DNA of 64,000 bases from Gnetum montanum (Eukaryota; Plantae; Gnetophyta). Positions 21,190-64,000 of this stretch are shown piece after piece (the first letter of the stretch is position 1; the number at the start of each line of letters is the position of its first letter). A program made the translations under genes and the position numbers. The DNA lies in NCBI GenBank assembly GCA_015680685.1, contig MNCI01001919.1, forward strand, positions 342,079-406,078. The letters run 5' to 3'. The notes below the pieces were generated by a model. It did no database searches, was not told where the DNA came from, and worked only from the letters and a program-made list of their open reading frames with translations.

Positions 21190-21195
21190 TTTTTC

Positions 21196-27783: not shown

Positions 27784-27829
27784 CAAAAATGTACCCAACG
27801 TACACACATGAAAATGCTTCATTTTAAGG

Positions 27830-35400: not shown

Positions 35401-35910
35401 AGAAGATGCTCAGTAGTAACAAAAAATGATGGCATGAAAAAATCCTCTATGTGCTATGGGCCTATCATATGACATGCAGAATAGCTACCGATAACGACAC
35501 CCTACAACCTAGTCTGTAGATCTGAAGTAGTGTTGCCCCTGGAACTACAAATTCCATCATTGTGGATGGTCCTCTCCATTATTATAAATGAGACTCAACA
35601 CAACGAGTCCAGGATTGTGGATTTAGACTCAATAGAGGAGAAACACATCTAGACGCTCGACACCATCGAAAGGTATCAAGATGGGCAGAAACAAAAGCAT
35701 CATCACAACTTGCATCAATGACCGATCAAGAAAGGAGACTTGGTTCTCAAAGCCGTTTGTGAACCAGCAGGAAAATTCTCTACAAGTTGGGAAGGCCCTT
35801 TCCTGGTTGTCAATGCATATGGCAACAGAGCATTCAGGCTAGTAGACATCAATGGAAATAAACACCTGAACCTAGTGAATCATATGTATCTAAAGCGGTA
35901 CCACATCTAA
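32430..35910 (+). pseudogene. pol: RT-RNaseH-additional RNaseH-integrase of B
   Basis: FAWSYEDMPGLDP, MDGFSGYNQI, YVDD (33300), PFYIYLASSEVSIA (RH), LYFDGAS...NNVEEYEGLLKGL...NSMLVINQ (aRH), EVHEGLCGGH..CDTCQ and WEGPF (INT). The RT-RH-aRH-INT order is diagnostic of the Tat clade. Confidence 0.93.
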
Positions 35911-35949: not shown

Positions 35950-36300
35950 TACAATGTAAAACTAGAAATGTTGTACACATTCGCTATGACGTAAAATTGG
36001 CATTTCTTGCATGCGTCCGTCACAACGATAAACTGGCAAAGTTTCTGACTGTCCACCATGACGTGAAACTGGCAAGGTAAGCATCCATCTACTAAGATGC
36101 TAAACCAGCACAGACTTGTACCTGGGTCACGACATAAAACTGACACCCACAGCACAGTTGACTGGGACCATAAACTAGCTCTTCCACTATCTGCTATGAC
36201 ATAAAACTAGCCGGCTTCAGTATGCGCAGACTTTAAACTGGGACCACAGTTTGCTGAGACTTAAAACCAACAACAACGGTCAACTAGGACTCAAAATTGA
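35950..36300. repeat. Degenerate ~35-40-bp tandem repeats in the 3' UTR of B
   Basis: Recurrent gac(g/a)taaaactggca-like core. Confidence 0.75.
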
Positions 36301-40490: not shown

Positions 40491-41117
40491 GTCCATGATG
40501 GATGTCCCATGGGAAACCTTTGTAGGCTGGTCAAAGCCCCACATAGATGTAACACAACTCATCCTAGGGAGGAAACACCTGTCCTACAGCGACACTACGA
40601 TTGCCTTCAAATAGATATGGGTGTGAAAATTTGTTAAAAAAATAATGATAAAAAAAAAAGAGTAGAAAGAAGAAAATAAAATAAAAAAGAAAAAGAGAGA
40701 ATTAGATAAGAAAAGTGCCCAAGTTAAATGGCATAGTCATTACTTTGAAACTATCTCAACCCTGGATCAACCATCTCCAAGCATTTCGTTGAGAGGTTGA
40801 AATATAAAGGGGAAAGATACCCATGCATGATGACTCCCTCATAAACACCCTGATGAGGGATCACACCATAGCAACAGCCCTCATGGTGTCACATCCTACC
40901 TTTTTTCTTTTTCCATACATTGTTCCTTGACCCCATCTCCTCAAACCTGTCCCCTGTTCTCTCTCATACTACACTTTCCTAGCACTCTTAAGCATAGTGA
41001 AGCATCATCTAAGTGGGTACTAACGAATGGTGTTGGTGTCATTTTAGTGATGGTGTTTTTTATTCTTTATTGATGTCTCTTGGGAAAATCCTCTAGACAT
41101 CGACAAAGAGGGGCTAG

Positions 41118-43224
41118 TGAAACACCATCAATTTTTGGCTCTCGTGGCTCAGCATGAGATCTACTCAAGCATGATGGGCCACATAGATCACGTAGCACCT
41201 TACAAGTCCAAATGGCTACAAAGTTCTCTCTAAGCCTGTCTACTATGCTCTTCAACATAGTGAGTGTAGCACCACTTACAAGGCTAGTTTGCACAAAGGG
41301 GCACTGTGGGTGGACCATACAGTTCACCAAATTTTCTATCTCTTAGGCCATCCTAGTCGTTGGTCCACCCAAGTACTAGGCTAAGAGCAGTTAAAAGTGT
41401 TTAGGATTTGCAAAATAGTTTGGAAAATTTTCTATTTTTGACTTGTTATGCTATGCTACGTTGCACAACGTAGACAGTATAGTAGGCCATGTGGTGCTGA
41501 AACTTTTTCTAAGTGTTGAACCAAACATAGAAGATGCATTTGGACAATTTTTTGACTTCTAAGGATGCCTATCCTACTGCATCCTTGGAGTATGGTTAGC
41601 ATGACATGGAAGAATTTGGCAAGTGGCACAAAATTCATCCTATTTTGGATGCTATGCTGTGCTACGCTACACAGCATAGCACAACATAGTAGGATGCCAA
41701 CATTAACAACATCCTCCCTCAAGTTTTTTTGACATGGAAAACACACTTCACCATTCGTCAGCCTGCAATGCTGCTTGTCCAACTTCATCCTCAGAACATG
41801 GCCAAGGTCCCATGGTAGAGCATTGTAGATTAAGTTAAAATTCATGCAATATTGGGTGCTACGCTGTGTTGCACTACATAATGTAGCACAACATAGCAGA
41901 GATATCAAAGCTAAAAAGTGTCCTAAGAATGAAATTGAGAATCTCAGGCTCTTTTGACATGGAAGGCATGGTTGCTAATTATTGAAGTTGCTTGTCTTGC
42001 TAGGTCTCAAAATGATATTTTCAATTTTTGACAACATTCATTCACAAAGGGGTTGCCACGCTGTGTAGCGTAGCACAACATAGCAAGCCAGTGTTCATGC
42101 TACTTTCCTACACTGGACACCGTAAACAGTGTATCACTTGAGAAGAAGCCTCAAGACCTCTCCAAAAATTCTAGAACTCATTGTTGATGGTTATTTTTGC
42201 TCTAGCATGCCCTCAATAGCCAAGATCAGTAGTTTGCTTTATTTTTGCACCCCTTGTTGATCCTCAAAAGTTGTGCCTATGCTTGACCCTACTCGAAAGA
42301 GAAGGGAAGATGTAGTCCCAGAGTGTAGGCTCCAATTTGTGTTTGTTCTAGACACTCTTGTAAAAATGTGGTAGTCTCAAATTTTGGCACATGCACTCTG
42401 GGTAATGTGGTCACAGTTACATAGTTGTTCCTGCTCTCGCTCTTGTTCCATTCAGAATAGCATATCATCATAGCACCACACTTTGAGCATAGCACACTAG
42501 CGTGACACATCCACATTCATGCTATGTGGGACCTAGGACACGTGGCATCCAAACCATGTCACTTTCTCAAAACTAGGCTCTATAAATATCCTAGTAAATG
42601 AAATTCTAAGGGTTGGCTTTTGCAGTTGGCTTTGGCAGAAGGTTGGCAAGAAGAAGGTTGATGAGCGGCAAATCCTAGCATTAGAGCCTTCCAAATCTCT
42701 CTTCAACTTGAGTGTAGCAACTGTCTGTCTAAAAAGCATTAGCTCATTTGTTCCTACCAGCATCACATCTGTAGCATCCTAGAAGTTGTGACTGTATTGC
42801 TCTGTTGCTCAGTTGTGTTTGTCCAAAGCTGGTCTCTAGTTGTACACATCCATCATTCAATCAAGAGTCAAGTCCCCCAATCTCGAGGTGATGCATTTTC
42901 TTGAATTCTCATTTTACTTTTCTATAGCATACATGTTGCACTATCGTGTATTTATTTGTGTTTATTGCCACTATTATGTACATTGATACGCTTCTACTGT
43001 TGTGCATGCTACATTCTTACTTATTTCAACTTCTATGTGTAACATGATAAAAATATTATTTACAAATGTAATTGAACATCATGTAAGTACTTGTCTGATT
43101 GACCAAACCATTTAGGATGCCCCATTTTCATTTTCTCTAGCACAATCCTCCTATAGACTCAGGGTTAGATTGTGCACCTGATAACCTCTCAGTGTTCTAG
43201 CCACTGACATTTTCAGACACTACA
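41118..43224 (+). repeat. 3' LTR of A (PPT aaagaggggct at ~41105-41115)
   Basis: tgaaacacc...actaca, homologous to 12372-14451. Confidence 0.9.
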
Positions 43225-43229
43225 GTTTT

Positions 43230-44391
43230 TTATGGGCTACTATGTGCTAGGTAGTGGTGCAAAGGTGTCCTTGAGGTGTAGAGTGTTTTGGGGGTGCGAG
43301 GTGCTCCAAATGACTTTGATGCCAAATGATGCTTGGGTTTGCCAAACGGATGTAAGGATTGCCAATCAAAATGCCAAAATGCCAATTGCCAAATGAAATT
43401 GCCAACCCCTAAAACATGAGGTGTAGGGGTATTTATAGGACAAGGGTTAACATGAAATTTGGATTAGGTGCCATGTGGCAAAAGGGGTAGTTGGGGCTAT
43501 GCTAGATCTAACTATGCTCCCACTAGAGTAATTGGTGCTACACTCTAGTGTGCTTCAATGGACCCCAAGAGACTACCAAACCATGACGAAGCTACCAAGA
43601 TCACATGTGGTAGTGTTGAAAAGAATGTAATGTACCTACAAGTAGTGCAACCTAGTGTAATTTGGAGGCTAAGCTTTGGGACTACGCTCTTCCCTCTTTT
43701 GAGTGAAGTTGAGTGTAGGTACAATTTTGGGATAAATAGGGGGTGAAAAAGAGATGAAAATTGCTAATCTTACTTGTTGGAGGAATGTTGAGGCTGAGAT
43801 GGAGGTCAGTGTTAAGCTCTAGAAGCTTTTGGAGGTTGTTTTGCATTACTACATTAGCTATGCTCTACAGTGTAACCTAATAGTTAGGAAAATTCTGCAA
43901 AAATTGAAGTCCAATGCTAGCTACACTGGCTACACTCTAGAGCATAGTGAGAAAATTAAGAGCATACCATTGAAACTTAGAAGAAATTAGCAAAACTTGC
44001 AGCCCTCATCCAAGCTATGCTGGCTATGCTCTGGAGCATAGTAGAAGGGGTAACCTCAATAGTTATAAAAAAAAACCAAAATGCTTTTTCCTAACTTGAT
44101 AGCTTCTAGCTTGATACTTACACAAATTGGACATTGAAATGCATGCTATGTTGGCTATGATCTAGAGCCTGGTAGGGAGAATGGGAGTGTAGCATGACAC
44201 TTAGAAAATTTTTGCCACTGCTATAGACACTTAGAAAATTTTGCAATAATGGTTCTATGCTACAGGCTATGCTGACTACACTTTGGAGCATAGTCCAAAT
44301 AGTGGAGGGATGGGCCAAATACTTAAAAAAATTTTAACACTTAGACAAATTTTCCATTGAGGTGTTATTGCCAAAATTTGGTGGTGTTTCA
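43230..44391 (-). repeat. 3' LTR of D, proximal part (PPT at 44394-44404)
   Basis: Collinear with ~61550-62697. Ends ggtgtttca (TGAAACACC on minus) next to ggcccctcttt. Confidence 0.88.
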
Positions 44392-46059
44392 TTGGCCCCT
44401 CTTTGTCAACATTTGGAGGAGTGGCCCAAGAGATGTCAACAAAGAACCTGAAACACCACAGCAGGCATGGCACCAACATTCCTTGTTAGTACTTGGTCGA
44501 ATGGTACTTCACTAGGCTTAAGAGTGCTAAAGGTAATGGTATGCTAAAGGTAATGGATGTAGGGAATTGGCTTGGGATGACAAGGAAGGATTGAGATATA
44601 AGTGGTATATCATGGTACAAGTTGCAGAGTTAGCACGGTCAACCATGATCATGGCACCAGGGTGGCTTGTTACCAAAATGGTGACCTGTTGTTAGAATGC
44701 TTGTGAGAGAGCTATTGCCCATAGCACCAAGATGGCTTACCCCTAACATGTTGACCTCTTGTGAGAGTGCTTATAAGAAGGATAATGCGAATTTAGCGTT
44801 GGACCAGTTGCAAAATTGCAGCTTTGCTAAATTTTGCTAGGGGACATGTTTTACCCCTTCTTGCCTTTTTGCCCCTTTTTTTGGAGTTTTATACTTTTTT
44901 CTTTAACTTTTTGCTTTTTTTTTTTCTTTGCAAAATGGTAGCTGCAAGATGCTTATCATTGAGTGGAACGTAGTCCACTTGATGGGCTTTGCCCAAAGGC
45001 AACCACATTGCATTTGTAGGATAGGTGTTTCCTTTGTAGGATGAGTTACATTACATCCACTTGGGCTTTGACCAATCCATAGAGAATCCTCATTGGATGA
45101 GTTGCATTACATCTATCATGGGGTTTATGGTTGATTGAAAGAAGAGTTCCATGTGCATTGGAGAAGCTTGTAGGAGAGGTGAGGAAATGTGAGGTATAGG
45201 GGTAAATGCAAGTGGGCTATAGTGAGGTAATAGGAATGTGCACTCTTGAGTGGCTTGGCAAGTCTAACTAGGCACATTGAAGTAATGTGGTCAATTGCCA
45301 TTTCGATGAAACATGCCTCTAAATGACTACCTCTGGGGATTTGTCCTGCAAACACAATGTAGAAAAAACAAGAAAACAACCACACAACATGAGATAAGAG
45401 CAAATTGTTAGTTGCGAGGGCACTACAAGTGCTATGAGTGCTAGACTAGTTGCAAGAGCTTGCAGTGCTAAAGTAAGAAGGCCAATGTGGGGGTTGAAGC
45501 TAGAAGGCTACAAAAGCTCCAGTAGCCACATCAAAAACAAGCACCCCAAGCAGGGCCAACAAGGTAGTTAAGGGTGATGGTGATGTAGGTACTTGAGACT
45601 CCACACCAAGAATAGGAGCATGGAAATCTAGCAAAATGGCAAAGAGCTAGGATGCTGAATGCGCTTACAACCCCTAGTAATGGTAAGGGCTAGAAGACAA
45701 TGGTAAGGTGGCTGGGCCATAGTATTGTTGGAACTTTAGTGAGTGGTGCTGATGGTGAGAGCTCTAACCAATAATGAAGTACCCAAGGCCAATAATGTTA
45801 TTGGTGTTTCTAGGGGATGGTACCACTAGTGATGGTGGTGGGAGCTCTAGAAGGTTATTAAAATCATCAAGGGAATCTCTAGAGGATCAGCAAAATGCTA
45901 AGGGTTATAATGCTGATGATGTGAACTCTATTCTAGAATTGCAACACTTTGCCTTGCTTTGATTGCAAGGTGTAGGTAGATTATGGAGAATCAAAAGTAT
46001 TTGCTTTTGTTTTGTCTGTAGAACTATGTGTGTTGAGTTGTGCATGCTAAATTGCAAAT

Positions 46060-46725
46060 TGATTTTAAGGTCCTAGTAGACCACATGTTGTGCTAATTTA
46101 AGGTCCTAGTAGATCGTGAACTTAGTTTAAGGTCCTAGTAGACCATGATATGCTAGTTCATAGTCCTAGTAGACTATTGTGTGCTAGTTTAATGTCATAG
46201 TGGATGGTGGATGTTGTGCCACTTTAACGTCATGACGCAAGGATGAACTATGCTAGTTTATAGTTATAGTGGACTCTCTATTTCTATTTAACATCATAGA
46301 AGATGCTCTGTGCTAGTTTAATGTCATAGAGGATGCTCTGTGCTAGTTTAACATCATAACGGATGCTTTGTGCCAGTTGATAATCATAGTGGACTCTCTG
46401 TGCCAGTTTGACATTGTAGCAGATGTCCTATGCTAGTTTAATATCATAGTAGACTCTTTGTGCTAGTTTAACATCGTAGTGGATTTTTTGTGCTAGTTTA
46501 ACATCATAGCAGATGCTCTATGCTAATTTAACATTGTAGCAGACTCTCTGTGCTAGTTTAACATCATAGCAAATACTTTGTGCTAGTTTAACATTATAGT
46601 AGATGCTTTGTGCTAGTTTATAGTCATAGTGAACTCTCTGTGCTAGTTTAACATTATAGTAGATGCTTTGTGCTAGTTTATAGTCATAGTAAACTCTCTG
46701 TGCTAGTTTAACATCATACAGGATG
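46060..46725. repeat. ~30-40-bp tandem array in the 3' UTR of D
   Basis: More than 15 copies of a tgtgctagttta(acat/tagt)catag-like core. Confidence 0.93.
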
Positions 46726-46764
46726 CTTGCTTACCTTAATTTTTCATTGATGTAGCATTGTGTA

Positions 46765-49700
46765 CTAGGCATAATACATATTTAAGTATGAATGGTTGAT
46801 CGGATTAGTAGACTCTTTGCCATCTAAGCCAACAAGCTTGAATGCTCTATTTTCATAGGCCTTGGAGACCAAGAAAGGCCCTTTCTAGTTGGCTAAGAAT
46901 TTATCCAGGGGTTTTTGAATGACCTTGAGAACTAAGTACCCCTCTTGATTGAGTGTTGATGCTGATTGTGGTGGTGCTTTTACCATTGCTTTTCTTGGTA
47001 CCATGCGATGTGGTTAAGTGTCTACATGCGCTTCTTCTCTATAGAGTTGAGATCAATGATTCTCAACTCGTTGTTCTAAGCCTCATCAATGAAGCTTGAG
47101 AAGATCACATGGAGCAATGAGACCTATAATTCAAGAGGCAAAATCACTTTAGACCCATACACAAGGCTATATGGTGTCTTACCTATTGTTGTTCTGCATG
47201 TTGTGCAGTAGGCCCATAGTGCATAGACTAGTTGCTTGTTCCATCATCGTTTGTTGATACTAAGCATCTTCTTTAGAAGGTTCATGATGACTTTGTTTAT
47301 ATCCTCTTCTTGTCCATTCACCTATGGGTAGTATGGTGATGAATAGGAATGGTTAATGCCAAGGTGTTCATAAAAGGCCTTGGTTTCTGCACTACTAAAC
47401 TGTGGCCCAGTGTCTATGACTATAGTCATGGGTAAAACAAATTGGGTCACTATGTTTTCAAGGATGAATTTGAAAACCTATTACAATGTTATTTTCCTAA
47501 GGGGAATAGCCTCAACTTACTTGGTAAAGTATTTGGTTGTAGTTATGATGAAGCTATATCCTGTGAAAGACTTAGGTGTGATAGGTCCTATGATATTCAA
47601 CCCCCAATGTTGGAATAGCCACATAATCTATGTGGTGTGTATTTCAATGGGTGGCACATGCATTATGTTGTAATTCCATTGATACACATCACATGTCTTG
47701 ACCTTGGAAATGAAATTGTGCTATATGTAAGGCCAATAGTAGAATAAGCATTTGATTTTCGATGCCATTACCTTGGGTGCTATGTGACCTTCGCACCATC
47801 CCTCATGAACTTGATAAATGATCATTTGCACTTTGCTATCACTAACATAGGTTAGTAGTATGCCATTATAAGATCTATGACATAGTGTGTTATCACCTAT
47901 GAGGACATACTACTGTGACCATTTTCACACTACATATTTTTGGGTAGTGGCTACATGTTGTTAAAGCTCACCATGTTGAAGGTACACCTTAATGTCATCA
48001 TACCATTCTTTTGCATGAGTTGTGCTTATTGTGGCTACGAATGAAATGTTAGTTATTTTTGTAATAGGCTTAGTGAAATCCATTACTGAGGCAAGCAAGG
48101 CATGAAACATGTTAGGTGCAATGTTTAAGGTTAAGGTGGCTAATGCGTCAATAATGGTGTTCTCATTATGAGGAATGTGTTGGATATCTATGGTTGCAAA
48201 TTGTTTGAGAAAGTGATTTGTCAAGTTGCAGTAAGGCTGTAAATGTTATGATTTGCAAGCATAAACCTCTGTAACTTCATTAACAACTAACTATGAATTG
48301 CCTCAGATCACTAGGTTTTGGATTCTTAAATCATAGGCTACTAAGATGCCTCTAAGGAGACCCTTGTACTCTGCTACATTGTTGGTGTAAGGAAATGCAA
48401 ACATGATTATAGTAGTAGCATTACCTCCTTGAGAGGTTGAAGCACCATTAAAGTGTAAGACTACCTCAAAGTTGGTAGGAACTTGGCTTATGCTACTAAT
48501 ATGCTCATTCAGAAATTTTTAATCTATTGTTGCTTGGTCATTTATTGTGAAGCTGTGAGTTGTGTAGCTATTTCTTGACCTTTAGTTGATGCTTGTGCTA
48601 TGTAGTGCAAATCAAACTTTGTGGTTACTACTTTCCACCATGCAAACTTACTACTTTTGTAAATGTTTATGATGATTGCTCGAAGTACATTACTTTTGTA
48701 GATGATGTTTAGCTAACTGTAGTAAAGATAGTGCCTCCACTTCTTAAGCATAAAGACAAAGACAAGGTAATTCTTTTCCACATTGTTGTATTTTTCTTCA
48801 TGGTCCACTAATGCATGGCTTAGGTAGTATATAGGATGTTTAAGCCATCATCTCACTTTTGGCAAAGTAGAGAGGTAATGGACATGTTGGAGGTTGCAAG
48901 GTAGATGTGGAATGGTTTATCTCCTTGTAGAGGGTAGACTGTAGGAAGTTGAGCCAACTCTTGTTTAAGGTTATCAAATGCCTCTTGGCATTAATTAGTT
49001 CACTCGAAGTGGACTCCCTTTTTGAGTAGATGGTGCATTGGATGTAGCTTGTTAGTTATGTAATAAACCTACAAATGAATTGCAATCTACCTTGTAACTC
49101 ATGTAGCTCCTTAAGGTTAGTTGATGGTGCTATGTTGATAATGACCTTAATCTTATCAGGGTCTACGTGTGTGCCTACTTTTGATACTACGAAACCTAGC
49201 ATGCGACCCATCTTAACATCAAAGATACAATTCTTAGGATTTAATCTAAGGTCATATCTTAGGAAATGTTTGAGTATGTAGTCTAAGTCATCTACATGGT
49301 TGTGTGTCATTTTGGACTTAACTACTATGTCATCAACATAGTCATTAAGCAAATCCAACAAGTAATCACTAAAAATGTATGTTATGGTGCATTGATAGGT
49401 TGCTCCTATGTTCTTTAGTCTAAAAGGGATTATTGTATAGTAAAATGTACCCCAAGGGGTAATGAAGGTAGTACTGAGTTGGTGCTTCAGGTTGATACAA
49501 ATATGGTTGTAACCAAAGAACCCATCCATAAAGGACAACAAGGCATGACTAGCTGTAGTATTGATGAGTTGATCAATACTAGGCAGTAGAAAATTATCAT
49601 TAATCGTCACCTTGTTTAGGTCCCAAAAATATATGAAAATGCATATAATTCCATTTTTCTTGGGTACAACCATGATGTTGGAGACCTAGTCTATGTAGTT

Positions 49701-50225
49701 AACTACCCAAATGAAACCAACTTTGTAAAGCTTGGTGATTTCATTATGGACTACTAATGACACCTCAGGCCTAACCTTGTAAGCTTTCTACTTAATTGAT
49801 TTTATATGAGGATCAAGGATTATATTGTGCTATACAATGCAAGAATCTAGGCTTGGCATATCTTCATAAGACCATGCAAATGCCTTCATGTTGTTGTTGA
49901 GTACCTTGGTGATGTTCTAGGTGTTTTGAGGTTATAACAAGGAACCAAGTTTTAGTGTTTTTGCCTCACCACTAAGTGTCGTTATAGGGACTTCAACTAG
50001 GGAATCCTCAGTGATGTCACTTTTTTCTAGATCTAGAGATTTAACTAGATGGTCTAGCCAATCTAGTGGTGCTTCTATAAATGTTATGTGTTCATCATAG
50101 GCTCTAGGCTCAAGGTCTAGGCATTTGACATTAATGCATCATGTGAGGTTACCATGAGGCTTAGTAAGGACCATAAGTGAATGAAGATGCCCACATGTGC
50201 TCATGTTGCAATCTTGCCAAGTATC
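46765..50225 (-). pseudogene. pol: RT-RNaseH-aRNaseH-integrase of D
   Basis: ORF 49056-49673 (LSFMDGFFGYNHI, DYVDDIVVKS), aRH remnant LHFNGAS..NNVAEYKGLL, ORF 47961-48224, and integrase remnants. Confidence 0.92.
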
Positions 50226-51098
50226 CTACAAAACAACTAGAAAGAACATCAAGCCACACCTATCTTAAATGGAGTCAAAATGCATAAAATAATGATAGTA
50301 ATGTAATGAAATTCATGTAAGTGTGTAAATGTGAAGTTATAGAAACAAGTATGCAAGCTATTTTCAGGCCTTGGAAAGCCATGGGGTGCTAGTTTAAGAT
50401 CATAGAGGACCATGAGGTGCCAGTTTAAGACCATAGTGGACCATGGGGTGTGCAAGCTATGTTGGTTTAGGTAAGGTTGGGAGTGCTTGCAACATGGAGT
50501 TAGGCTAGGCGTTCACTGGGCATTTAGAAAAATTTAGAAAATTTTTCAAGTCTAGGAATTGCCAAAAAAGTGTGAAAATTTTCTAACTCTAGTTGCTACA
50601 CTCTACCCTTTGTTATGCTCAAACCCTTACTACACTCAGGAAAAAAAATTATAAAATTTTCCTAAGTGTGGGACACTATCCTAGTAGGTAGCACATTTAA
50701 TTACCTTAGAAGGGTATATATGCATATTTCACCAATAGTAAACTATCATTTTTTAAAGTGAAAACAAGAAGTTATAGAGCATAGCATGGTTAGAGTAAGG
50801 AGTGGAAGCTAGAGCATAACAACTAGAGCATAGTAGCTAGAGCATGATAGCTAGAGCGTAGCAACCAGCATGATGCACCGAAGTGAACGTTAGCACCCTA
50901 AACTTGTCAACATCGATGAGGGAGAGTAAGCACTAAGACATCTACCCTAGGCATGCATGAAGAAATGGAAGGAGCCTATTATGCTCCACCCTTTGCATAA
51001 TGTTTGCTTTGTATTTTCTTTCACCTTGCATTGGGGTTTAGGGCTTGGGGCAACTTGCCTTGGTAGGGATTGCTACCATCATGGCCACGATCATTGCC

Positions 51099-54000
51099 AT
51101 GGCCAGGAAGAGAGGGCACATTCATGGGAAAAAGGGTCTTTCTTTATGTAGTTTTCTTTTATATTATGTGGTTGTATGTAACTGGAGTGTGGCTAAGAAG
51201 CATTTCTCTCGACCTGCAGTAGTGGTAGTGTATGGCTATGTGTAGGAGTGAGGGTTTCATTCTTGGTGCTTTTACTTTTTGAATGGGATTCCATGGCTAT
51301 GTGGGGCATGGGGGAAATGGAAAAAATTGCGGTTTTGTGATTGTAGCTAGGGTGGCCATGACCTAGGAGTGAGGGGTTATGGGACCCCCTTGTCCTTCTC
51401 TTTTTTTTCTGTGTGATCATGTAGGTGGAGGAATTGGGGTTTGGCAGTGACCCTAGGACTAATGAAATGAAAAAGGAGGATTACAAGGCACACGACACCT
51501 AGGAAGAGAGATTTTTTGTGTGTTCCCTATGGACCCAAGACCAAGGTATGGAAAATGGTGTAGCCACAAGGGCAGTGGCCACAATGGGGAAGTAAGGGGT
51601 AGGAAGAGCAATGACAAGCCATGGCCATTACGAGTGCCTCAACGCATGCTATTAGGATGCAATGGAGCTAGGTGCCATTATGAAGGGGGCATAGTGCCTA
51701 GTGTGAGGGTACAAATGAGAGTGGGGGTGGAAATTAGTATTTTTTATTTTTGAAAATTTTTTCTTTAGGAATTTTGGGGCTACGCTCCCAACCGTTAAAA
51801 TTTTTTTGTTGATTTTTCATGTTTTGGGGCTATGCTCCTTGGGGAGTGTAGCCAACAGTTAGAAACAAATTGATGATTTCTGGGGGCTATGCTCTTTGGG
51901 GAGCATAGCTAACACTTAGAATTTTTCGATATTTATTTGGGTTATGCTCTCAAGGAGGGGTAACCTAGAGTTATAATTTTTCATGAACACCTTATGCTAC
52001 ATTGCATGGAGTTAGAAAAAAATTGAAAATTTGCTATGTGCAACAATGAAGAATTTACTAAGTGTAAAAATAAAATGCCAAATGTGAGAATGATAAGTGT
52101 GAGAATGCAAAGTGCTAGAATACCACATGTAAAACAAAATGCAAAGTGTACCAAAGCTTTGCCAAAGTGCTAAACTTGCAAATTGAACATGCAAAACTAC
52201 TAAAACATGCAAACCGCATCAATGTAAACATGCAAATGTGAAGGAAAATGTTAATGCTATACCCCAGTGAGCATCAGGCATGTCAAATGTATGTATTGAT
52301 GTCCTATGCCCACAGGGCCCATAGGAGACCCTAAGGATATGTTTCCTACTAAGTTATGCTATCCTATGTTAGCTTTGCTAATTTTGATAAGTGTAATTTA
52401 ATGTATTTTTGTGCATCCAATGTCTAATAACACTTTTTTTTTTCTTTTTACAGTTGCAGGTTGTTGTTGAAGCCAATCTTCATCATGGTGGAGCTCGTTA
52501 GCATCCTTTGCTATATGAGCGAGCTTGTTTTGAACATGTCTTCATTAGACATGTAGTTGGATCAATAGGTGGTATGGTTTTGGCTAGGAGCATGTGAGTT
52601 TTTGGAATTCCTACTCCAACACTTTAGCATGTTGATGTGGTCACACTTAGTGGAAAAAGCTACTAGTGTGTGATTGCTGCCTAGAACAAACCAAAGCATT
52701 TTGAGGTTAATGTCCAATGAGCCTACTACCAGTGATGGTGAAGCTGAGGGTTCAGGCTGAGGTCCTAGGGATGTTAGGCCTTTGTCTAGGATTTGGTAGA
52801 TGCTAGAATTTAGTTGTTATAGCAAGATAAACACTCTCTTTGTTGCTTGGTGCATGCATAACCTATTTTAGAACCCACTTGGGATAGTGTATAGTGTAAG
52901 AGGATAAGTGTTCCTATCATTTTTGGCTCTTCTTTATTTTTTGGCTATTATCTTATATTAAGATGCTAACTGCTCATGTTTAGTGCTAGGTTTAGTGTTG
53001 ATGAGCATGGCTTTCATGATGAGGAGGGGGACCTGAACCTAACCCACACTACCTTGCAAAGATTTCATCCTGTAAGAGTGTTCATGTGGGGGTGATTGGG
53101 TAGATTAGATCTAACTTGGTGGAGTATCCTCTTTGGTATCTAAAAGCCTATGAGAGGTGTTAGACCCATGGTTGGATGTGGGGTGGATGGATGGGATACC
53201 TAGCATCAAGGAATCATTGGTTCCATCACCACCATCATGCACATCTTTTGTCCTGCATAAGAAATTTATCATTTTATTCTCATGCATTTACTACTTTGGC
53301 TTTTTGCATGATGCTAATGTTGTTTTTGCCTACATTGTAACTATAGTTGTTTCAGGAGAGGTCACAATGGTTACTACGAGTTGCATTGAGGCCACCCTCA
53401 TCATGAAGTATGGTGATGTTGAGGATACACAACATTGGTTATGCCACCAGGCCCCAACAGAGTTAACTAGTAGGCTTATGTAGGCTAGGTTGATGGACCT
53501 ATTCTTGGCCCTTAGCCCAAGCATTTCAATGGTTGAAATGGTTGCTATTATTGATTCCTTCAACAATGAGGCTCATCACTTTGTCATGTGGATATGTGGT
53601 GTGAGAATGGTCCTAGACCTTACTGATGACTTCTTTGTAGATCTCTTTGGCCTTCCCTTTGATGGCCCATTGGTCATTAATAAGACCAATAGAGAGGTGG
53701 ACCATTGAGGTGATGTCAAGGAGTGGCTAGGAACCTCTGAATCATGCAAAGGCATAGTCATTAAGAATGTGTAGGTGCCTATGGTCCATAAGCTTTACCC
53801 TCTCTTCCATGCTCATGTGTTTCCAAAGTTGCTCTCCCAGGGAAAATCCTTGGGATGGACCAAGCTTGAGTGATAAGGGATGTGCTAGAGGAGGACATAA
53901 GGTATAAGTAGGCCTCTCACATTGCTAATGGCCTACATTTCAAGGTCTTCAAGTTGTGCCACAACTTTCAGGTGAGGTCTAATGTGCACTTCACATTCTT

Positions 54001-56026
54001 TGTAGGATTCCTATAAAGGTTTGCTGAGTTTTTGGTGGTTTGTGAGGATGGATGATGGGTGGTGAAAGACTACACATAGCTCTTGAAGTTGTGGGTCAAG
54101 CACTTGTTTGCTACCATGTGAGCATAGGATCCCCTAGAGGTAATTGGTGAGTTATTTTCCATAATGGCTAAAGGTCACTTGGGGTGATCTCACTAGCATG
54201 ATAATGTAGGTGAAGCTCTAGTAGCTAGTATCGGGAATGTGATTAGAATGAAGTGTTACATGCTAAGATGGTGGAACCATCTAAGAAAAATATTAAGAGG
54301 CCATGTGTTGTAGAGGAGCCTACACAAAAGGTTGAAAAGGTGGATGGCAAGAAGATCTACCTAAAGTTTCATGGCTTGCACATGGATGTTGCAAGTTAGT
54401 ATGAGTTATTGGATGCATCTTTTGCATTTTGTGTATTTATATTTTTATGTTTTTTATTCTATCCTATATTGTGCAAAGTTTTTATGCTAAGTGTTAAAAT
54501 GCTAATCTTGACATGTGTGTGAATTGTTGGAATTAGGTGAGAGGGATATTAGGGTAGTGATAGAAGTAGTAGTAGAAGAGGTCCCTCCTCAAACTGAGGA
54601 GGAAGAGGCATAGGAGGAGGAGCTGCATGAGGCTACAAAAGTCCTCTAATAGTTGGAGGAGGAGGAACTACTTCACCATGATGGGGGTAACTTTGATAGC
54701 CTCTTTGATGGTGTGTATTTGCATGATCCCCCCTCTCACACTTGAGGGTTTGCTAGGTAAGTGCTCTGAGTTGCCATCTATAATTACTCTCTTTTTGCTC
54801 TTGCATCTTTGGCTGTTTGATTGTTGCTAAATGTGTTATTGCATTGTAGTTGCAGAAGTACCTACTAATGGTCCAATGTCCACCTCTACCTATTACATGG
54901 AGCCATGGGTAGAGGCACCTAACAAATTCACCTGCATGGAAGGTCTAGTTGAGGACATGGTAGATTGCTTATAGTAGGTGGATCCTAGGCTTGGTATGCT
55001 TGTGATGTTTCTTTGTTTATCTTGCTCTAATATTTTGAAACTTAGTCTATGCCTAATGCTATTTTTCTTGTTGTATGCAAATAGGTTCTAAGCTTCACTA
55101 GGATTTGAGTAGGGTGGCCAAGGTGGATGCCATCCTCAATTTTCCCCCTTAAGTGGAGCAAGTGCCCTATCGTGTATATGAGGTAGCGAGTAAGTGCATG
55201 ACTTCATGTGTGAAAGTGTTATGGATTTGCAAGTGCACTAATGAGTAGTAGGTGCATGAGCTCTAGGATAGGGTAGTGAGCCAGGATGCTATGATTGAGG
55301 ACCTGCAATATTTCATTGTAGCTTTCACATGAGGGGATAGTACCTAGTGAACAACTAAGATCAACTATGCCAGATACTAGTCAACAACTTGGGGTAAAAA
55401 TAACCAAACTAGGATTGGAAGGATAAGAGCACAAAAGTTTATTAGTGGGAAAAGACTCAGAATAACAACAAGCACCACTACAAGAATGAATGAAATGAAT
55501 ACCTTAAATGGTATAAAGAGGAGTTCATTGAATGTCATTTCCATGATATGTTCCTTGAGGTGATTGGTGGGACATAGGCTTACGAGTTGTTTGTTCATCA
55601 TGTAGTGGTGAGTGGGTCTCTAGAGAGGTAGATTACTATGCCCTAAAGAGAGGTTTCCTTTGCCATGTTTTTGATGAAGTTGCCTACATGGACTGCTTTG
55701 GACAAAGGCAACACCCTTGTGGGTATTGACTTTGGCTCAGAGGATTGGATGTGGCTATCAAAGGCTAAAATACTCCAATGCCTAGAGGAGGGCCTTGATA
55801 GATTGCCTCCAAAGATGGATGTGGGATCCTCTTAGGTTAGATTTTTTTGTTGTTTTTCAAGTTTTTTTTTAGTTTTGCATGCTGTGCATTTGTTGATTGA
55901 TTTGTTATTTTACATTGCTTTGAATAGGCACTAGGTAATGTTGTAGGCCCCAACGGAGTAGTAGAGGAAGAGGAAGAGGAGCCTCAACCCCCATTGAATA
56001 CCATCGACTTAACAATCCTGCTGTAG
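51099..56026 (+). pseudogene. Antisense multi-exon accessory gene of D (homologue of 25851-31862)
   Basis: Candidate start MARKRGHIHGKK. T-rich introns at ~52905-52989, 53256-53356, 54398-54536, 54757-54849, 54994-55083 and 55836-55927. Exon peptides match B. Stop at 56026, AATAAA at 56104. 5' end uncertain. Confidence 0.72.
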
Positions 56027-56199
56027 CCCTACTATTTGGGTAATTTTGCATTTTTTTGATAATTTTTGCTATATAGTCATGCCATGTATTTTTTTGATGG
56101 ATTAATAAACTATTTTTTTACTATGTGAATTGCACATTATTGAAATTCTTTCATTCATTTGCTAAGTGTTGCATGCTAATAATGTAGGGGATTGATGTT

Positions 56200-56530
56200 A
56201 TTAGGTCCTTTGTGGACCCCATGCTAGTTTAATGCCATAGTGGGAGGGCCATTGCTAGTTTAGGGCCACTTAGGGTTGCAAATGAAGAGGAAATGTCTTG
56301 CTAGTTTTAGGCCATGATGGGCCATGTGATAGTTTTAGGTCATTTCAGGTTGCAAGATGCTAGTTTAAACCCTTGGTGGACCATAGCAATTATTTTGGGC
56401 CACTCTGGGCCATTATGATGAAAGAAAAAGGGTTGCCATTTTTAGGCCATAGTAGGTTGTACACTAGTTTAAGGCCTTTTTGGGCCATGACAATGTTAGA
56501 AAGGTGGCCATTTTTAGGCCATGACAAGCC
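56200..56530. repeat. Degenerate tandem repeats after the gag-PR stop of D
   Basis: Recurrent gctagtttt(a)ggcca-like core, the reverse complement of the B repeat core. Confidence 0.7.
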
Positions 56531-56764
56531 ATATATAATTTTTGGTAATTTTGAATTTTGTGATTTTTATGTATTTTAGTGTTTTTTAATGTGTAAGAAA
56601 ATCAAATGAAAATCCATAAACAAAAAGAATGAATGCATAATAAAATGAATGATGTAAAACACAGGCAACCATGAAAAATGTAATTACACAAGCAAAAGGA
56701 AAAAGAGGCATGCAAAGATTAGGAGCAAGTAAGCACTTAGCACCCATTGGACTAAGGGGGTGCC

Positions 56765-59700
56765 TTAGTCATGTAGTTGCTTCTTAACCCAAGGTGGGTT
56801 GGGGGGTGCATAGGGTCTAGGTAGTACAAGGTGATATTCACCAAGACCTTCATCAGTGATGTTGAAAGATAACTCTACCCAAAGAGCTTCCTCAGGGAGG
56901 TCGTTGGCTTCTTTTGGTTCCTCAAGTGGGCTTGCTGGACAAGGTTGATCCTCATCCTTCATGGGCAACATGTCATTGGAAAAATCTACCTCTAATCCTT
57001 ATTCTATGTCAAGGTTATTTATGGTCAGAGGGGCTGCATTGTCATCATGTATGATCACTTCTCTAACTTTGTATGGAAGGTGGATTTCTTGGTGGATGGG
57101 TAAGGAGACCATCTACAATTAGGCTAGCCAAGGCCTTCCCAAGATTATATTGAACCTAAACATCTACTCAATGATAATGAATTCAACTATAGTGGGGAAT
57201 TTCTCCCTTTCCATGAAAGCTATTGTGACCATCCCCCTTACAACAACATGTGATCCATTAAAGGACTTTAAGCATGTTGTTTTTGTGGGTTTGATTTGGT
57301 CAGTGAGACTGAGTTTGTCAATGATTGGGAATGGGATGACATTAGTTGCTGCCCTATCATGGACACGCATCCTATGAATCTTGCATTTCCCTACAAGGAT
57401 AGTTATGAACATTGGTGTGGCGGTGACCTGATCCTTTTCAACGTCAATCTTGGTCATGTTGTTGCAAAAAATTAGGGGTGTTGAGTCTAACTCCTGAGGT
57501 GTAGGGGAAAGCATCACAACATGGATGACTTTTTCATCCATTAGGATGTCCTTGTTAATAGGAATAGAGGTCAACATGTAAAGTAATTCTTTATAGTGAG
57601 TGGAGGAGGTCATGACCAAGTTGTATAGGCTCAAGGATGTGTTTTTTTTTCTTCAAAGACTATTTGTCTTGTGACAATGAATCTAGGAAATCCTTATTAT
57701 TGTTAGCTATCTTGTTGGCCTTCATTTCCTCCATGCAGCCTAAGAGATGGATCTCTTGGGAAGGAGATTTGGGCTTTGCTTGTTTTGCTTACTTTTGAGC
57801 ATCAATGCTTGATTTTTGATTACTTGTAGTGGCATTCTCAGTTGACATGGACATGGGAATAGAAGATAAGGGGATGGACTTAAGTGGACCTAGCTCCATG
57901 TTTTTCTAATTATTTTTTTGGTGACGTGCTTGCTAGGCCTCTTGGGCTACCACCTAGACTATCTATTGTGGTATGTGGGATAAGGCTTTAGGTAGGCAAG
58001 GTCTCATGTAGAGCCCACCACCGAACTGTAAGTAGGCAAAGAGTCTACACATTGAGGCATCCTAATGACAAAGGATGTCTAAGTTGCTATTGTTGCAACA
58101 TGTTGTAGGGCCCTAATAATAAAGGGTGTCATGTGTGCTTGAGGTGATGCTTTGATGACAAAAGAAAACCTCAAACTAATTGATGCTGAGGAGGCCCCAG
58201 TGTTTCCAGAGGACACACGAATCATAAATGGTTGTTGTTTTGGTTCTGAGTAACCATTAATGTTGATGGCATTGATAAAGTAATCCACACCACTCACATT
58301 GAAAGGGTCTTTGTACACCTTCATCGATTGATTTTTAGGGAAAACTAGGTTGGTCACATCAAGGACAAGTTAACCTTGGTTAATCATGCATTGTATGTTA
58401 TCCTGTAAGGCCATGTAGAAATCCATGTCAAGGCCAGGTAGTTGATGGTAATGGTAGAACCAGTTTAACCTGAAATATTTTGAGACCAAAGGCTCATTTG
58501 GTGTGGCAATTGATGGGTTTCTAAGGAGCTTGTAGTAGGGATCATGTCCTTGTAAGCATCTTCAAACATTTTCTTATACTAGATGCACCCAACATTAAGT
58601 AGTTGACCTAAGAGCTCCAATGGCTTGATGGGTAATGATGTATATTTTGAGTAGTCCTTACACTCAAAGTTTGGCCTTGGGGTAGTTTGCCCTATGGCCA
58701 TTGATGGTATGGACTAGTTTTTTGCTGTAGTGCTAGAGTGGGATGCCTTACTATTGTCTAGGGCCTGGGTGCCTTGGTTGTTGGTTTGGCATTATTTGGC
58801 TTGGCCTCATTGGCCATCGTTGCAATAGTTGTGGTTTCCTTGCCCTTTTTCTTGTCTTTCTTTGCATGCACATTCTTATAGGCCACATAGGTTGGGCCTT
58901 TACTAGCCTCTGCTGCATCCTAGATGCTCTTTGTTTGAGCAAATTCTTGGCTCAAGGAGTGTAGGGAAAGGTAGTACAACTTTAACTTGATGAAGTCATT
59001 CACTACACATTTGAAAATAGCTAGTAGATGGCTTTTTTCAATGGGATTGCAAATTTCATTGAGAGTAGTGCTTTAGTGCTAGATGAATTTTTGTACAAGC
59101 TCTAAGTGGCCCTACTTGATCTACATTAGTTGATCCAAGGTCACCTTGGGCTTTAAGTTGTACTTGAAGTGAGTGATGAATTGACTAAGAAATTTCTCTA
59201 AAGAGGATGTGGAGGCCCTGGGGAGTGCATGGTATCGTTCTAGTGCCTTGCCAATTAGGAGCATGACAAATGCATAGATGATTACATGTGGTCATGCCTA
59301 CAATAGAAGGCATTTAGAATGGAAGGTCATTAGATGGGTGCTAGGATTCCTTTCACCATTGTATTTAGTGAACTGGGAAAGTTGGACTATGGGAGGTAGG
59401 GTTAATGATGGGATTGTAGGCTTGATTAGGTTATCTTGGTAAAAGTGCATCACATGAACCATTTTAGAGGAGGTAGCTTTAAGTTGCTTAACCTCCTTGG
59501 TGAGCATCTGAATCAGTTGGAATGCTTGGCCCAAGCTTAAGGTGGGTGTAGTAGGCTACCCTAGTTGTGCTATCCATTGTGCTACTTGAGTGATCCATAG
59601 CCCTAATATGGGCTGCACGACCACATGAGATGCCTATTGTGTGTGCTATTGCATGTGTTTCTGTGTGTGTTGCATCATGGACACAAAGATTGGAGCCCAC

Positions 59701-60490
59701 CACGCAGTTGTGACTTGTGCCATTGTAGGAGGGGCCAATGAGATAGGAAAAACATATGATGCTTGAGTCAGTGGTAGTTGGGACATCTACACAATGTGTA
59801 GGTAAGGTTGCATGGGCATGATGGATGATTGTAGGGAGGATTGCATAGGTTGTGTTGATGTCATGAAGGGGAGGATGGTAGATGATCCTACACCCTAATG
59901 TGTGTAATGTGAAAAGAAAGGAATGACAGATGGTCCTACACCCTGATGCACAGTCACTTAATGCTTGCCATCATAGGGGTTGACTTAGGAGGTGATAAAG
60001 GGGATATAACCATCTAATAGAAGGTAGATGGCTAGGGTTGTAGAGGGATGAAACTAGATGTAGCCTATTGAAAAGAGGCATGAAAGGGATTCTCATGCTT
60101 TGAATGAGCCTCAAACTCATCCTACCCATCTTGTAGGGGATCCTCATAGTCAGTTGCCACATCATGCTCATTCGACCCAGTTAGTTGAATGAGTTAGTCA
60201 AGTAGCCACCGAAAGGTCTTAGTGAGTAGAATGAAATCATTAGGGGTAGGGAAGTACTCCCTCCCATTCTGGTGTATGATTTTGTAACCTCATTTGACAG
60301 TCATTTCTTAGTGGTATAGGGATAGACCTACTTAGATTTTTGTGCAAAGGAAGTTATATTTTTTGTTGTTGACTACCATGTATTTGGGAGGTTGATTGCA
60401 TATTCTAAGTGATTGCCTCTCTACCAAAGCAGACCCCTTAACCCTAGGAAGATCAATTGTGATCTCCTACTGAATAGGTTGAACAATGAC
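56765..60490 (-). pseudogene. gag-pro: gag-protease ORF of D
   Basis: ORFs 59298-59534 (FTKYNGERNPSTHL), 57164-57634 (RVHDRAATNVIPFPI) and 56765-56971 ending WVKKQLHD*. Start approximate. Confidence 0.85.
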
Positions 60491-60985
60491 TATGCTTAGG
60501 GTAGAGGTTGAGGACTACTTAGGGTTCATGATGCTATGTAAAAAATGCAAAAGTTGTAGATGCTAAAAAATAGCTAAGTATAGGAATGTTGAAAAATGGC
60601 TAAGTATGAAGATGTTGAAAAATGTTAAAAAAGTGGCTAAGTCTAACAAAACTACTAAAAAAAACTAACTTTAGTGTGCTACACTTGCTATACTAAGGTT
60701 TTCTATGCTCTTACATTGAGAGCTAGCTATGCTCTCTTGAGCACATAGAGTTTTGGCTAAGTGCCAAAGATATGCTTTGGATTTAGTCCAATGGGGTTCT
60801 AGGGAAATTGACAACTGGGTCCAATCTATAGCAACTCTCTCATAGATAACTCTTGTGTTGGCCTATGATCTAGCTATTACCATGGTAGGTCCATAGGGGT
60901 GTTGGGTCTATGCTAGTTTGAGGCTAGTAACAGAGGTGCAAAGAGCATGTGAGACTACCACTGAACAAAGAAGGAAATGGCATGG

Positions 60986-61002
60986 CCCTCCTTCTAGCAC
61001 CA
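60986..61002 (-). promoter_or_regulatory. tRNA-Asn PBS of D
   Basis: Minus strand TGGTGCTAGAAGGAGGG next to the LTR end. Confidence 0.85.
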
Positions 61003-61008
61003 GAAAAC

Positions 61009-62697
61009 TATAGCGACCAAAACCATCAGTGGTTGGAATGGTCATGTCGAGGGTTCTAAAGGCTATGATATAGTTGTAACCCCATCCCCATTTGAAGGGC
61101 TATCTTTGGAGGGGAAAATGAAGGTAGAGCACTTGGGACGATCTTATCAATCAAATTGGGACTTACAAAGTGTTTCGATGAATGAGTTCTAGGGGTTTGG
61201 ATAGTGTTTTCAGTCATACCAGGGTCAACTAAGCTTGAGTGTAGCAAGATTTCCCAGTGCAAGAACGATGGTGAAAACATGAAAATACATGCAAAATAGC
61301 AAAAAAAAATGTGAGTGGAATGCTAAATGCCAAAATAAGTACTTGAAAATGTAAAGGATTTTCAAGAGAGGAAGAATGGCACCACCCCAAATGGGGGGAG
61401 TGTCGCAATTACAAAGAAAAGGTAAGGAGGTACATGTTGTATAGATGGGCATAATAGGTAGCATATTCATAGTCCCTAGGGTGTCCAGGTTGTGGAAACT
61501 AACATGTGTCATGAAGCCTATGCTTGCTGGGTTGGCTACTATGGTGACTCATGGGCTGCGGTGTGCTTGGTAGTTGTGAAAACGTGTTGCCAAGGTGCAA
61601 AGTGTTTTAGGGGTGCGAGGTGCTCCAAATGACTTAGATACTAAGTGATTCTTGGGTTTTTCAAATAGATGCAAGGATTGCCAATCAAAATGCCAAAATG
61701 CCAACTGCCAAATGAAATTACCAACCAACCCCTAAAATGTGAGTCATAGGGGTATTTATAGGCCTAGGGTTGATGTGAAATGCAAATCAACCACCATGTG
61801 GCAAAAGGAGTAGTTGTGGCTATGCTAGATCCAACTACGCTAGAGTAATTGGTGATATGCTTTGGTGTGCTCTAATGGACCCCAAGAGGCTACTATATTG
61901 TGACTACATTGCCAAGACTACATGTTCTAGAGTTGAAAAGATTGCAATGTACCTACAAACAGTGAAAAATAATGCAATTTGGAGGCTACACTCTAGGACT
62001 ATGTTGTCCCCTCTTTCAAGTGGGATCAAGCATGAAAATAATTTGAGGACAAATAGGGGATGCAAAAGAGATTCAAATTGCTAATCTTGCTTGCTAGAGG
62101 AATGTTGAGGTTGAGATGGATGCTAGTGTTGAGCTCTAGAAGCTTGTGGAGGTTGTTCTACATTGCTATGCTAGCTACACTCTAGAGCGTAACCCAACAG
62201 TTAGGCAAATTCTGCAAAAATTGAAGTCTAGTACTTGCTATGCTAGCTATGCTCTGGAGCGTAGCATTGACACTTAGAAAAAATTGGCAAAACTTGTAAT
62301 CATCATCTAGGCTATGTTGGCTATGCTCTAGAGCATAGCAAGAAGGGTAGCCTCAAGAGTTAGAAAATCTACCAAAATGCTTTTTCCTAACTTGATAGCT
62401 CCTAGCTTGATACTTAGGAAAAATGGACATTGAAATGCATGCTATGCTAGCTACACTCTAGAGTGCAGCAGGAAGAATGGGAATGTAGCGGAACACTTAG
62501 AAAATTTTTGCAACTACTATCAACACTTAGAAAATTTTGCAATTCTAGTTTTATGCTACATGCTACATTGACTACACTCTAGAGCATAGTCCTAGTAGTG
62601 GAGGGATGGGCCAAACACTTGGAAAAAATTTGCTTGGTGTTGACACTTAGACAAATTTGCCATTGAGGTGTTTTTGCCCAAATTTTGTGGTTTTTTT
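61009..62697 (-). repeat. 5' LTR of D (~1.69 kb)
   Basis: Matches 11783-12371 plus 43230-44391. TATA (minus) cctataaata ~61753-61762. Confidence 0.88.
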
Positions 62698-63700
62698 AAG
62701 CCCCAAGAGCAAGAAGCTAAAGTGACTCATGTCATAAGACTTCTTTGGGAGGATCCCAAAGTGGAATCTATTCATTAGATTCTCATTGCTGAAACTGTCT
62801 AGTCAAGGTAAGATGAGGTGCTAAGGCCAAGACCCAATTTGGAGGTCACATTAACAAAGGCCTACCTTGAAAAGATCTAAAACAAGGAGGTTTAGAGTTT
62901 GATTCCTCAAGAACTCAAATTTTGATCCTTCTTAGAACTAGCATCCAAGAAAGTTCATACATAATAGTAGGAATCTCCCATGTGGTCCATTCTTTTCTCT
63001 AGGGGGAATGGTACATGTAGGATATTTACTTATTCTAGAAAAAACACTAAGAAAGATGCATCAGATAAAATCAAAGACATCACCATTTCCAACTCAATTG
63101 AGGCCTTTTTTGAGGCCCTTAGTTTATCCAACATTAGGATAACTTTGATGAAGATATTCATCCAAGTAGACCTTGAAGCAAAGAAAGAGTGGGTCCAACA
63201 CTGCTATGGGATGGATTTCAAGGAGTATGAGGCACTCACTAAGGCAAAGTGCATATATTTCAAAATTTCACCCTATGACTTAAACCCAATGATGAGGCCT
63301 AGTAAGATCATAGCCTTCTCCACCCATGCATGTGCCACTTTCAATAGGAAATTCCGTATCAACCTTCCTTAGCTTATCTATGTAGAGATAGAGAAGTAGT
63401 TCAAAGAAAATAAGCAAGGAAGAAAGAAACTTCTATTTCCAAGTCTAATTTGAAAACTCTACAAGAGGAAAGGCATAACATGCTATGAAAATGGTACACT
63501 TTGTTATGTTCCTACCGAATCTTGATAGGAGATGCTGAAAGGTAAAGTAGATGTAAAGTTGTAAGTAGAGGAGTAGCCATCACCATCACCTATCAGGGAG
63601 ACCATATCAAAAGTACATAAAGCTATAGAAATAATTACAAAACTCTATGAGTAGCTACTATAATAATAATAATAGGGTTCAGCAAGTGATGGGGAGCCAT
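62698..63700 (+). pseudogene. Decayed accessory (env-like/ORF after pol) gene, probably of Athila-type element O
   Basis: ORF 62980-63372 (KIKDITISNSIEAFFEALSLSNI...FRINLP) resembles plant-transposon accessory proteins. It lies where O would resume once D is removed. Confidence 0.45.
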
Positions 63701-64000
63701 TAGTTTACCATCCAACATTAAGCCATCTTAATGAGGTCATTAGGACCATCATTTGGTTGGAGGAAACCATCCCATTGTTCTTAACACAACAAATGTAGGA
63801 ATCCACAGGAATAAATCCTAGTACTTGAGAAGTTATGGTGTTAATCCCTAGGCAAGAATTCCATGAAATCTCTAAAAATTCCATAACTTTCTCAGTGCAC
63901 TTAGAGGTAGCCAAGGGGGTAATTGTCCTAATGATGTAGCACCATAGACAAGAGATAGTGGAAAAAGTGGTGGATGATAGGATGGCCAAGGTCCTAAACA

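Follow-up and report, generated by a model that had tools for sequence, protein, structure and literature searches.

A 64,000-nt stretch of Gnetum montanum contig MNCI01001919.1 (the window; all positions refer to this full stretch) contains nested, decayed plant long terminal repeat (LTR) retrotransposons. Two of these, element B (plus strand, lying inside gag sequence of the type found in a third element, C) and element D (minus strand), carry the same predicted multi-exon gene on their antisense strand, between the protease (PR) and reverse transcriptase (RT) regions. We lean, with reserve, towards the reading that B and D stem from one Tat lineage sharing this selected gene with its matching intron-like gaps, that the spacer housing it would be an intron of the Ogre type, and that the encoded protein would regulate the element through flanking motif arrays.

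A first-pass annotation of this DNA had claimed that D combines different LTRs with the same spacer gene as B. The LTRs of both elements indeed show nothing above chance (best local score 33, shuffle maximum 32), while tblastx, which that annotation had named as one way to compare the spacers, yielded colinear blocks linking D 52458-55832 (+) to B 31182-26188 (-) with a sum E of 1e-93; all six peptide pairs it had quoted were found in the sequence. Global alignments of corresponding exons and introns were scored against 60-200 shuffles. Six of the seven exon pairs scored above shuffles (z of 14.7 for E2, 2.1 for E3, 20.0 for E4, 3.1 for E5, 6.6 for E6, 13.8 for E7 and 1.8 for E8, with the E3 score reached by 7/200 and the E8 score by 10/200 shuffles), whereas none of the six intron pairs did (I2-I7, z -0.8 to 0.8), in agreement with the claimed conservation of peptides next to unalignable introns. 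The expected concentration of similarity in exons holds for exons versus introns, but not past the 3′ end of the gene, where B and D also have a non-coding stretch in common (score 180, shuffle maximum 98.5). Likewise, the extent first given to the gene in D (51099-56109) is supported for 52460-56026, but not for the first ~1.3 kb from 51099: between D 50900-52459 and B 32000-31181 there is no similarity above chance (score reached by 74/100 shuffles), and the score of the putative exon 1 peptides of D and B was reached by 867/1000 shuffles.

The shared intron positions had been another claim, and the acceptors of all seven junction pairs are AG in both copies, at the same place and in identical phase. 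As the boundaries were placed by eye, this tally cannot pass for a blind one. Similar flanking peptides anchor both sides of I2, I5 and I6, across which the reading frames continue, and one side of I1, I3, I4 and I7. The predicted introns are short (55-146 nt) and AT-rich, and their GC content (0.20-0.39, 12 introns) does not overlap with that of the exons (0.40-0.49, 14 exons; p=9e-6). GT donors are present in 4/6 introns of B and 3/6 of D (7/12 overall), and in at least one copy at all six positions; the two introns quoted in the first-pass annotation do match, yet each has a decayed donor in one copy. Exon E6 measures 138 nt in D and, once a 1543-nt repeat insertion is removed, 138 nt in B as well, and this insertion is missing from some contigs in 3/3 DNA runs. 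The inserted repeat itself is high-copy, has an LTR-like start and a 5-nt N gap, contains 15-nt and 182-nt tandem arrays, and is possibly a solo LTR of another family. Splicing of the gene's own antisense transcript would very probably have joined this exon series.

In the antisense gene, the 573 codons that align without gaps between B and D have an identity of 0.53/0.68/0.36 at codon positions 1/2/3, and this 2>1>3 pattern is consistent with the antisense strand only; the pol control gave 0.71/0.81/0.43 (902 codons). The proportions of nonsynonymous (pN) and synonymous (pS) differences are 0.385 and 0.767 in the gene, against 0.224 and 0.792 in pol. Because synonymous sites are equally saturated in gene and pol, the divergence of both is compatible; this saturation leaves no usable point value for the nonsynonymous to synonymous rate ratio (dN/dS), which was finite in 266/1000 bootstrap samples. 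The antisense frame was the best of six (BLOSUM 899 versus at most 444), a comparison biased by the choice of blocks in that frame. The codon pattern indicates that the antisense gene evolved under purifying selection, weaker than that on pol but clear. The earlier view of an ancestral, selected part of the lineage is thereby supported as to selection, whereas "ancestral" covers only the common ancestor of B and D, as seen in two copies. Neither copy is intact, E4 of B having 13 stops in 346 codons. In 3/3 DNA runs with three organism labels, 30/30 bins of the B spacer had high summed contig depth (58,644-80,250 covering contigs per run), and this full coverage makes B a member of a high-copy family, a copy-number result that covers B's family only. 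Among the top 15 of about 600 DNA joints, none represented a form lacking the spacer.

Both elements show the Ty3/gypsy order plus an additional RNase H (aRH) that marks the Tat clade, in B by Pfam domains and in D by translation and blastn. Their aRH sits after RNase H (RH) and before integrase (INT), which does not fit a TatII or TatIII placement (aRH before RT or after INT), and PR is fused to Gag, as in Ogre. Published accounts give the RT-RH-aRH-INT layout for Ogre and Retand of angiosperms (PMC6317226), and it is described from gymnosperms, ferns and others as well (PMC10508981; PMC13468544). B and D share 57% identity across 387 RT-RH residues and form a single clade (ultrafast bootstrap, UFBoot, 99; tree of 44 rows). 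Its position outside the Ogre-like and Retand-like loci of the sample is weakly supported (51, 22), these locus labels being set by extra open reading frame (ORF) content. The outgroup of this tree was a more distant gypsy pol at 6975-9063 (~30% to B), which comes without a spacer gene. The best Pol identity to relatives is 39-42% (1052 Pol relatives), and the relatives named among the 120 matches listed are angiosperm, except two bacterial labels. Judged by domain order and tree, B and D are Tat-type Ty3/gypsy retrotransposons, two families of one lineage.

The PR-RT distance amounts to 7776 nt in B (1543-nt insertion included) and 7141 nt in D, versus 292-1713 nt in all 42 related loci with both domains placed (of 80 fetched). 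The gag-PR frame terminates at aligned stops in B and D, the nine fetched Ogre-like loci that were inspected have the same stop-gap-pol layout, and Ogre carries a spliceable intron between gag-PR and pol (PMC4408406). About 100 codons upstream of RT, both elements have a pyrimidine-rich, acceptor-like site ending in AG, with 10 nt identical in B and D; its 8-mer is present at one place in the spacer of B and at two in that of D. In the sense transcript, the spacer is likely to be an intron of the Ogre type that the gene has enlarged, as its position and this site suggest. In several fetched Ogre-like loci (L013:6470-6700 and similar) a GT overlaps the gag-PR stop, and B and D have none there.

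The same spacer is flanked by repeats. In B and D alike, arrays of one 15-nt motif occupy three non-coding junctions, past the gag-PR stop, ahead of the pol acceptor and beyond pol, always on the strand of the antisense gene. A matrix built from the B post-gag array alone found, against 0.11-0.47 expected per cluster, 9, 3 and 14 sites at the three junctions of D and 1 and 5 at the two remaining ones of B, with at most two sites in any coding or LTR region; conversely, a matrix from the D post-pol array found 3, 3, 8, 2 and 4 sites at the other five clusters. Element C, which has gag-PR and no spacer gene, showed no motif enrichment, and the 740 kb of fetched loci contained 6 occurrences of a strict motif pattern.

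The predicted product comprises ~990-1100 codons over E2-E8. Its conserved core, which is helical, lies in E4; E7 has a helical stretch of a heptad-like kind (predicted coiled coil), and E5 and E8 are acidic. It is likely a regulator of the element itself and possibly acts in anti-silencing, by analogy with the VANC protein of VANDAL transposons. Since the gene's introns are not recognised as such in the packaged sense RNA, the backward orientation would let them survive reverse transcription. Unspliced sense RNA would probably serve for Gag-PR and packaging, and removal of the spacer for Pol. More tentatively, the ~1000-residue product may bind the motif arrays and oppose silencing, as VANC does for VANDAL.

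Several observations weigh against this combined reading. Five of the 12 predicted donors are non-GT, and no convincing sense donor was found for the spacer, the sole aligned phase-0 GT being also explained by codon conservation. The 5/5 RNA runs on B revealed neither an intron joint nor a PR-RT joint, at thin coverage (55-648 reads each, mostly <90% alike), and in one of them (X11) 16 reads lay over position 27045, within predicted intron I6. X11 also had a strand-biased pile over E7 (depth 22 vs 0.5), which may hint at antisense transcripts of other copies; it depends on the library's strand rule and was not counted. The protein is equally isolated: the exons had 0 Pfam matches at E<=0.01, phmmer gave 0 matches among 1.84 billion representative sequences, word searches were blank with B E4 (target lengths 170-543 only) and with alignment A2 (target lengths 29-485 only), and comparison with the Ogre PMD/DUF7745 profile gave a probability of 0.06-0.09%. 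Finally, the motif pattern was first spotted by eye across all arrays, which leaves the matrix test short of fully blind; arrays following pol are common among Tat elements, Retand included (PMC11963269); VANC motifs are family-specific, whereas the motif of B and D is common to two distant families; and the apparent link between gene and motif comes from three elements only. Further searches with the protein were also negative, with 0/90 candidates in a metagenome scan and a best E of 0.11 for tblastn against 80 fetched loci. The best PDB sequence match, to a GTP pyrophosphokinase (E 0.0025), lying over a helical stretch, was rejected as unrelated and taken as coiled-coil bias, and the AlphaFold2 model of E4 had a mean predicted local distance difference test score of 32, so that the absence of Foldseek matches at E<=0.001 is uninformative.

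A possible but somewhat unlikely alternative is that the protein is a remote helical accessory of the PMD, DUF1985 or Transposase_32 kind whose role is unrelated to the motif, the arrays acting as host-factor enhancers, RNA stability signals or 3′-end signals after stops. By eye, the protein has some likeness to Transposase_32-type proteins, and a helix-hairpin-helix stretch of E4 resembles the PMD N-terminus in alignment A3; both resemblances are leads only. Two of the three arrays start 30-250 nt past a stop codon, but the third motif cluster precedes pol and is not downstream of a stop. PMD (PMD-C; background in PMC5418596 and PMC9289625) and the DUF1985 of VANC have been reported as structurally alike (bioRxiv 10.1101/2024.09.27.615353), but the profile tests for such kinship were negative: a six-frame screen of the window with a profile built on 11 DUF7745/PMD ORFs of fetched Ogre-like loci gave nothing (best E 5), and the spacer exons had no Pfam match to DUF1985, PF04195 or PF10536. 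Identity with PMD (PF10536)/DUF7745 was therefore rejected for want of a profile match, although with a decayed query of a depth of only two copies a distant relationship is still conceivable.

The main rival to spacer splicing, which we hold somewhat unlikely, posits two transcription units, with pol on its own subgenomic RNA from a divergent promoter shared with the antisense gene and the acceptor closing a short leader intron. The antisense gene and pol do lie head to head, their 5′ ends 0.5-0.9 kb apart, an ATG follows within 4-7 codons past the acceptor in both copies, and no conserved donor lies near PR. Moreover, an intron of 6-7 kb is long for plants. The gene23 of Grande is driven by its own internal promoter (PMC7264820). 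Conversely, a pol separated from PR would presumably need processing in trans, the nearest fetched relatives have the Ogre stop-gap-pol layout, and the stretch between antisense gene and pol is not conserved between B and D (score reached by 35/100 shuffles).

It is improbable that the coding region is real and its "introns" are unspliced low-complexity linkers between separate small ORFs: the missing RNA joints, the reads inside I6 and the non-GT donors fit such linkers, but the seven AG acceptors in matching place and phase, the gap lengths, the GC contrast and the frames running on across I2, I5 and I6 do not. A passenger gene of host or DNA-transposon origin, captured once in the ancestral spacer and conserved by slow decay, is less probable still and already largely refuted, since the intron-rich structure, which would suit capture at the DNA level, and the broken state of both copies are outweighed by third positions and introns that are randomised while positions 1-2 are kept, which requires selection during the B-D split, by the lack of a terminal inverted repeat pair at the spacer ends (on which a CACTA-type origin was also rejected) and by the lack of a host homologue among the representative sequences searched with phmmer.

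Table 1. Predicted exons and other features of elements D and B in the window.
Feature	Positions	Strand	Remarks
D putative 5′ part (first-pass annotation)	51099-52459	+	homology to B unsupported
D exon E2, predicted	52460-52903	+	
D exon E3, predicted	52990-53256	+	frameshifted; uncertain 3′ end
D exon E4, predicted	53347-54390	+	conserved core; 35-37% amino-acid identity to B; stops and frameshifts
D exon E5, predicted	54537-54756	+	acidic
D exon E6, predicted	54856-54993	+	
D exon E7, predicted	55085-55835	+	last 144 codons 41% identical to B
D exon E8, predicted (last)	55928-56026	+	acidic; beyond composition, no alignment with B
B antisense gene, predicted exons E2-E8	25851-31180	-	~1099 codons
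B possible exon 1	31862-31744	-	based on B alone
B exon E2, predicted	31180-30730	-	
B exon E3, predicted	30642-30317	-	
B exon E4, predicted	30261-29222	-	
B exon E5, predicted	29121-28856	-	
B exon E6, predicted	28771-28748 and 27204-27091	-	
B repeat insertion in E6	27205-28747	-	1543 nt
B exon E7, predicted	27005-26185	-	
B exon E8, predicted	26105-25851	-	
D acceptor-like site (sense)	50226-50237	-	conserved; phase 0 with pol
B acceptor-like site (sense)	32418-32429	+	conserved; phase 0 with pol
D motif array just past gag-PR stop	56223-56521	+	9 sites, 0.13 expected
D motif sites before pol	50357-50433	+	3 sites, 0.17 expected
D 30-nt tandem array after pol, with motif	46092-46716	+	14 sites by B's matrix, 0.47 expected
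B motif array past gag-PR stop	25314-25751	-	96-nt period
B motif sites after pol	35987-36211	-	5 and 8 sites by the two matrices, 0.32 expected
D gag-protease	56765-59900	-	protease 57403-57044; approximate start; terminal stop aligns with B's
B gag-protease	22100-25206	+	protease 24601-24960; approximate start
D pol (RT, RH, aRH, INT)	46750-50225	-	broken; translation and blastn
B pol	32430-35910	+	RVT_1, RT_RNaseH, RVT_3 (aRH), Integrase_H2C2, rve, in order (Pfam)
D 5′ LTR	61009-62695	-	adjoining primer-binding site ~61002-60986
D 3′ LTR, first part	43232-44390	-	remainder apparently ~11784-12372, separated by nested element C
B 5′ LTR	19654-21188	+	paired with 3′ LTR 37492-39026

The LTR pair of B has a Kimura two-parameter (K2P) distance of 0.11 with 5-bp flanks agreeing at 4/5 positions, versus an LTR distance of 0.20 in D, and the observed/expected CpG ratio is 0.09-0.15 in D (46800-56100) versus 0.50 in B (25850-35900), which fits an older, more deaminated D. 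Despite their unrelated LTRs, both elements have the same type of primer-binding-site sequence (B 21195-21211, D 61002-60986). Element C (span 12374-43231, LTRs 12374-14458 and 41120-43231, with 39027-41119 following B) consists of gag-PR, then ~0.7 kb and the 3′ LTR, and has no spacer gene, pol or motif arrays. By its sequence it is a gag-PR-only, non-autonomous relative, with a protease 67% identical to that of B and a gag (18555-19635) with 65-70% DNA identity to the gag of B (22510-23203) and D (59529-58442). At 15043-17489, 2.5-2.6 kb from the 12374-14458 copy, there is a third LTR of the C type, a tandem or rearranged one. An Rfam scan of 44000-64000 gave 0 matches, and a viral contig search gave no match.

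The extra ORFs of plant Tat elements are without established function, and introns are rare in plant LTR elements (PMC12786077). The surveys of such ORFs sought single ORFs of at least 250 codons up- or downstream of the polyprotein (PMC6317226), and given this limit a multi-exon gene between PR and RT would be missed. Our literature search (titles and abstract openings; Steinbauerova 2008, 2011 and Zhao 2011 outside coverage) turned up no account of an antisense gene with several exons lying between PR and RT. The layout illustrates how a gene rich in introns could be retained by a retroelement despite its RNA intermediate, and it places gag-PR so far from RT that annotation tools may misread such elements. 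With candidates for both the protein and its target motif, the long-standing question of what these antisense genes do becomes directly testable.

Compared with known systems, B and D resemble Ogre in the RT-RH-aRH-INT order, the PR-Gag fusion, and a stop followed by a non-coding gap that separates PR from RT, a gap which in Ogre is described as a spliceable intron (PMC4408406, PMC6317226). They differ in an inter-ORF gap of 6.5-7.2 kb, versus ~0.1-0.6 kb in the fetched Ogre-like loci, and in the extra gene, which in Ogre (DUF7745/PMD) is in sense and 5′ of gag, whereas that of B and D is antisense, inside the gap and without a PMD match. Retand, Grande and RIRE2 (TRP28) and TatIII (PMD) likewise have an antisense accessory coding region conserved family-wide, with tandem repeats nearby, the function of which is described as unknown, probably nuclear (PMC11963269, PMC4408406, PMC7264820). 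These ORFs lie between pol and the 3′ LTR, whereas the gene of B and D lies between PR and RT and has at least seven predicted exons; PMC11963269 describes such antisense regions as ORFs and uses the word "intron" 0 times. An assignment to Retand was rejected on the pol-3′ LTR distance (1.6 kb in B and 2.4 kb in D, versus 2.9-6.6 kb in Retand) and on a Pfam search of the spacer exons, which returned no PF04195 match. A fungal parallel, reportedly with introns, is the brtn gene of the element Boty (Botrytis). It is also an extra antisense gene in a Ty3/gypsy element (PMC8365987, PMC7264820), but one that is fungal, 3′ of pol and likened by description.

VANC of VANDAL, like the gene of B and D, is an element-encoded multi-exon gene accompanied by a short non-coding motif tandemly arrayed in one orientation, and VANC targets are defined by such dense, same-orientation, tandem, non-coding motifs (PMC5735166), an arrangement that the dense arrays in the non-coding regions of B and D share. 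VANDAL is a DNA transposon with a DUF1985 protein whose binding has been shown, whereas B and D are LTR retrotransposons with a putative motif-binding protein that has no DUF1985 match. By this analogy, an LTR retrotransposon lineage with VANC-like, sequence-specific anti-silencing, combining an intron-rich antisense gene of a new family inside the PR-RT intron with a target motif at three junctions, is conceivable, if doubtful. Antisense extra ORFs are already known in Tat elements; what is new in B and D is a predicted multi-exon antisense gene between PR and RT, an acceptor-like sense site before pol and shared motif arrays.

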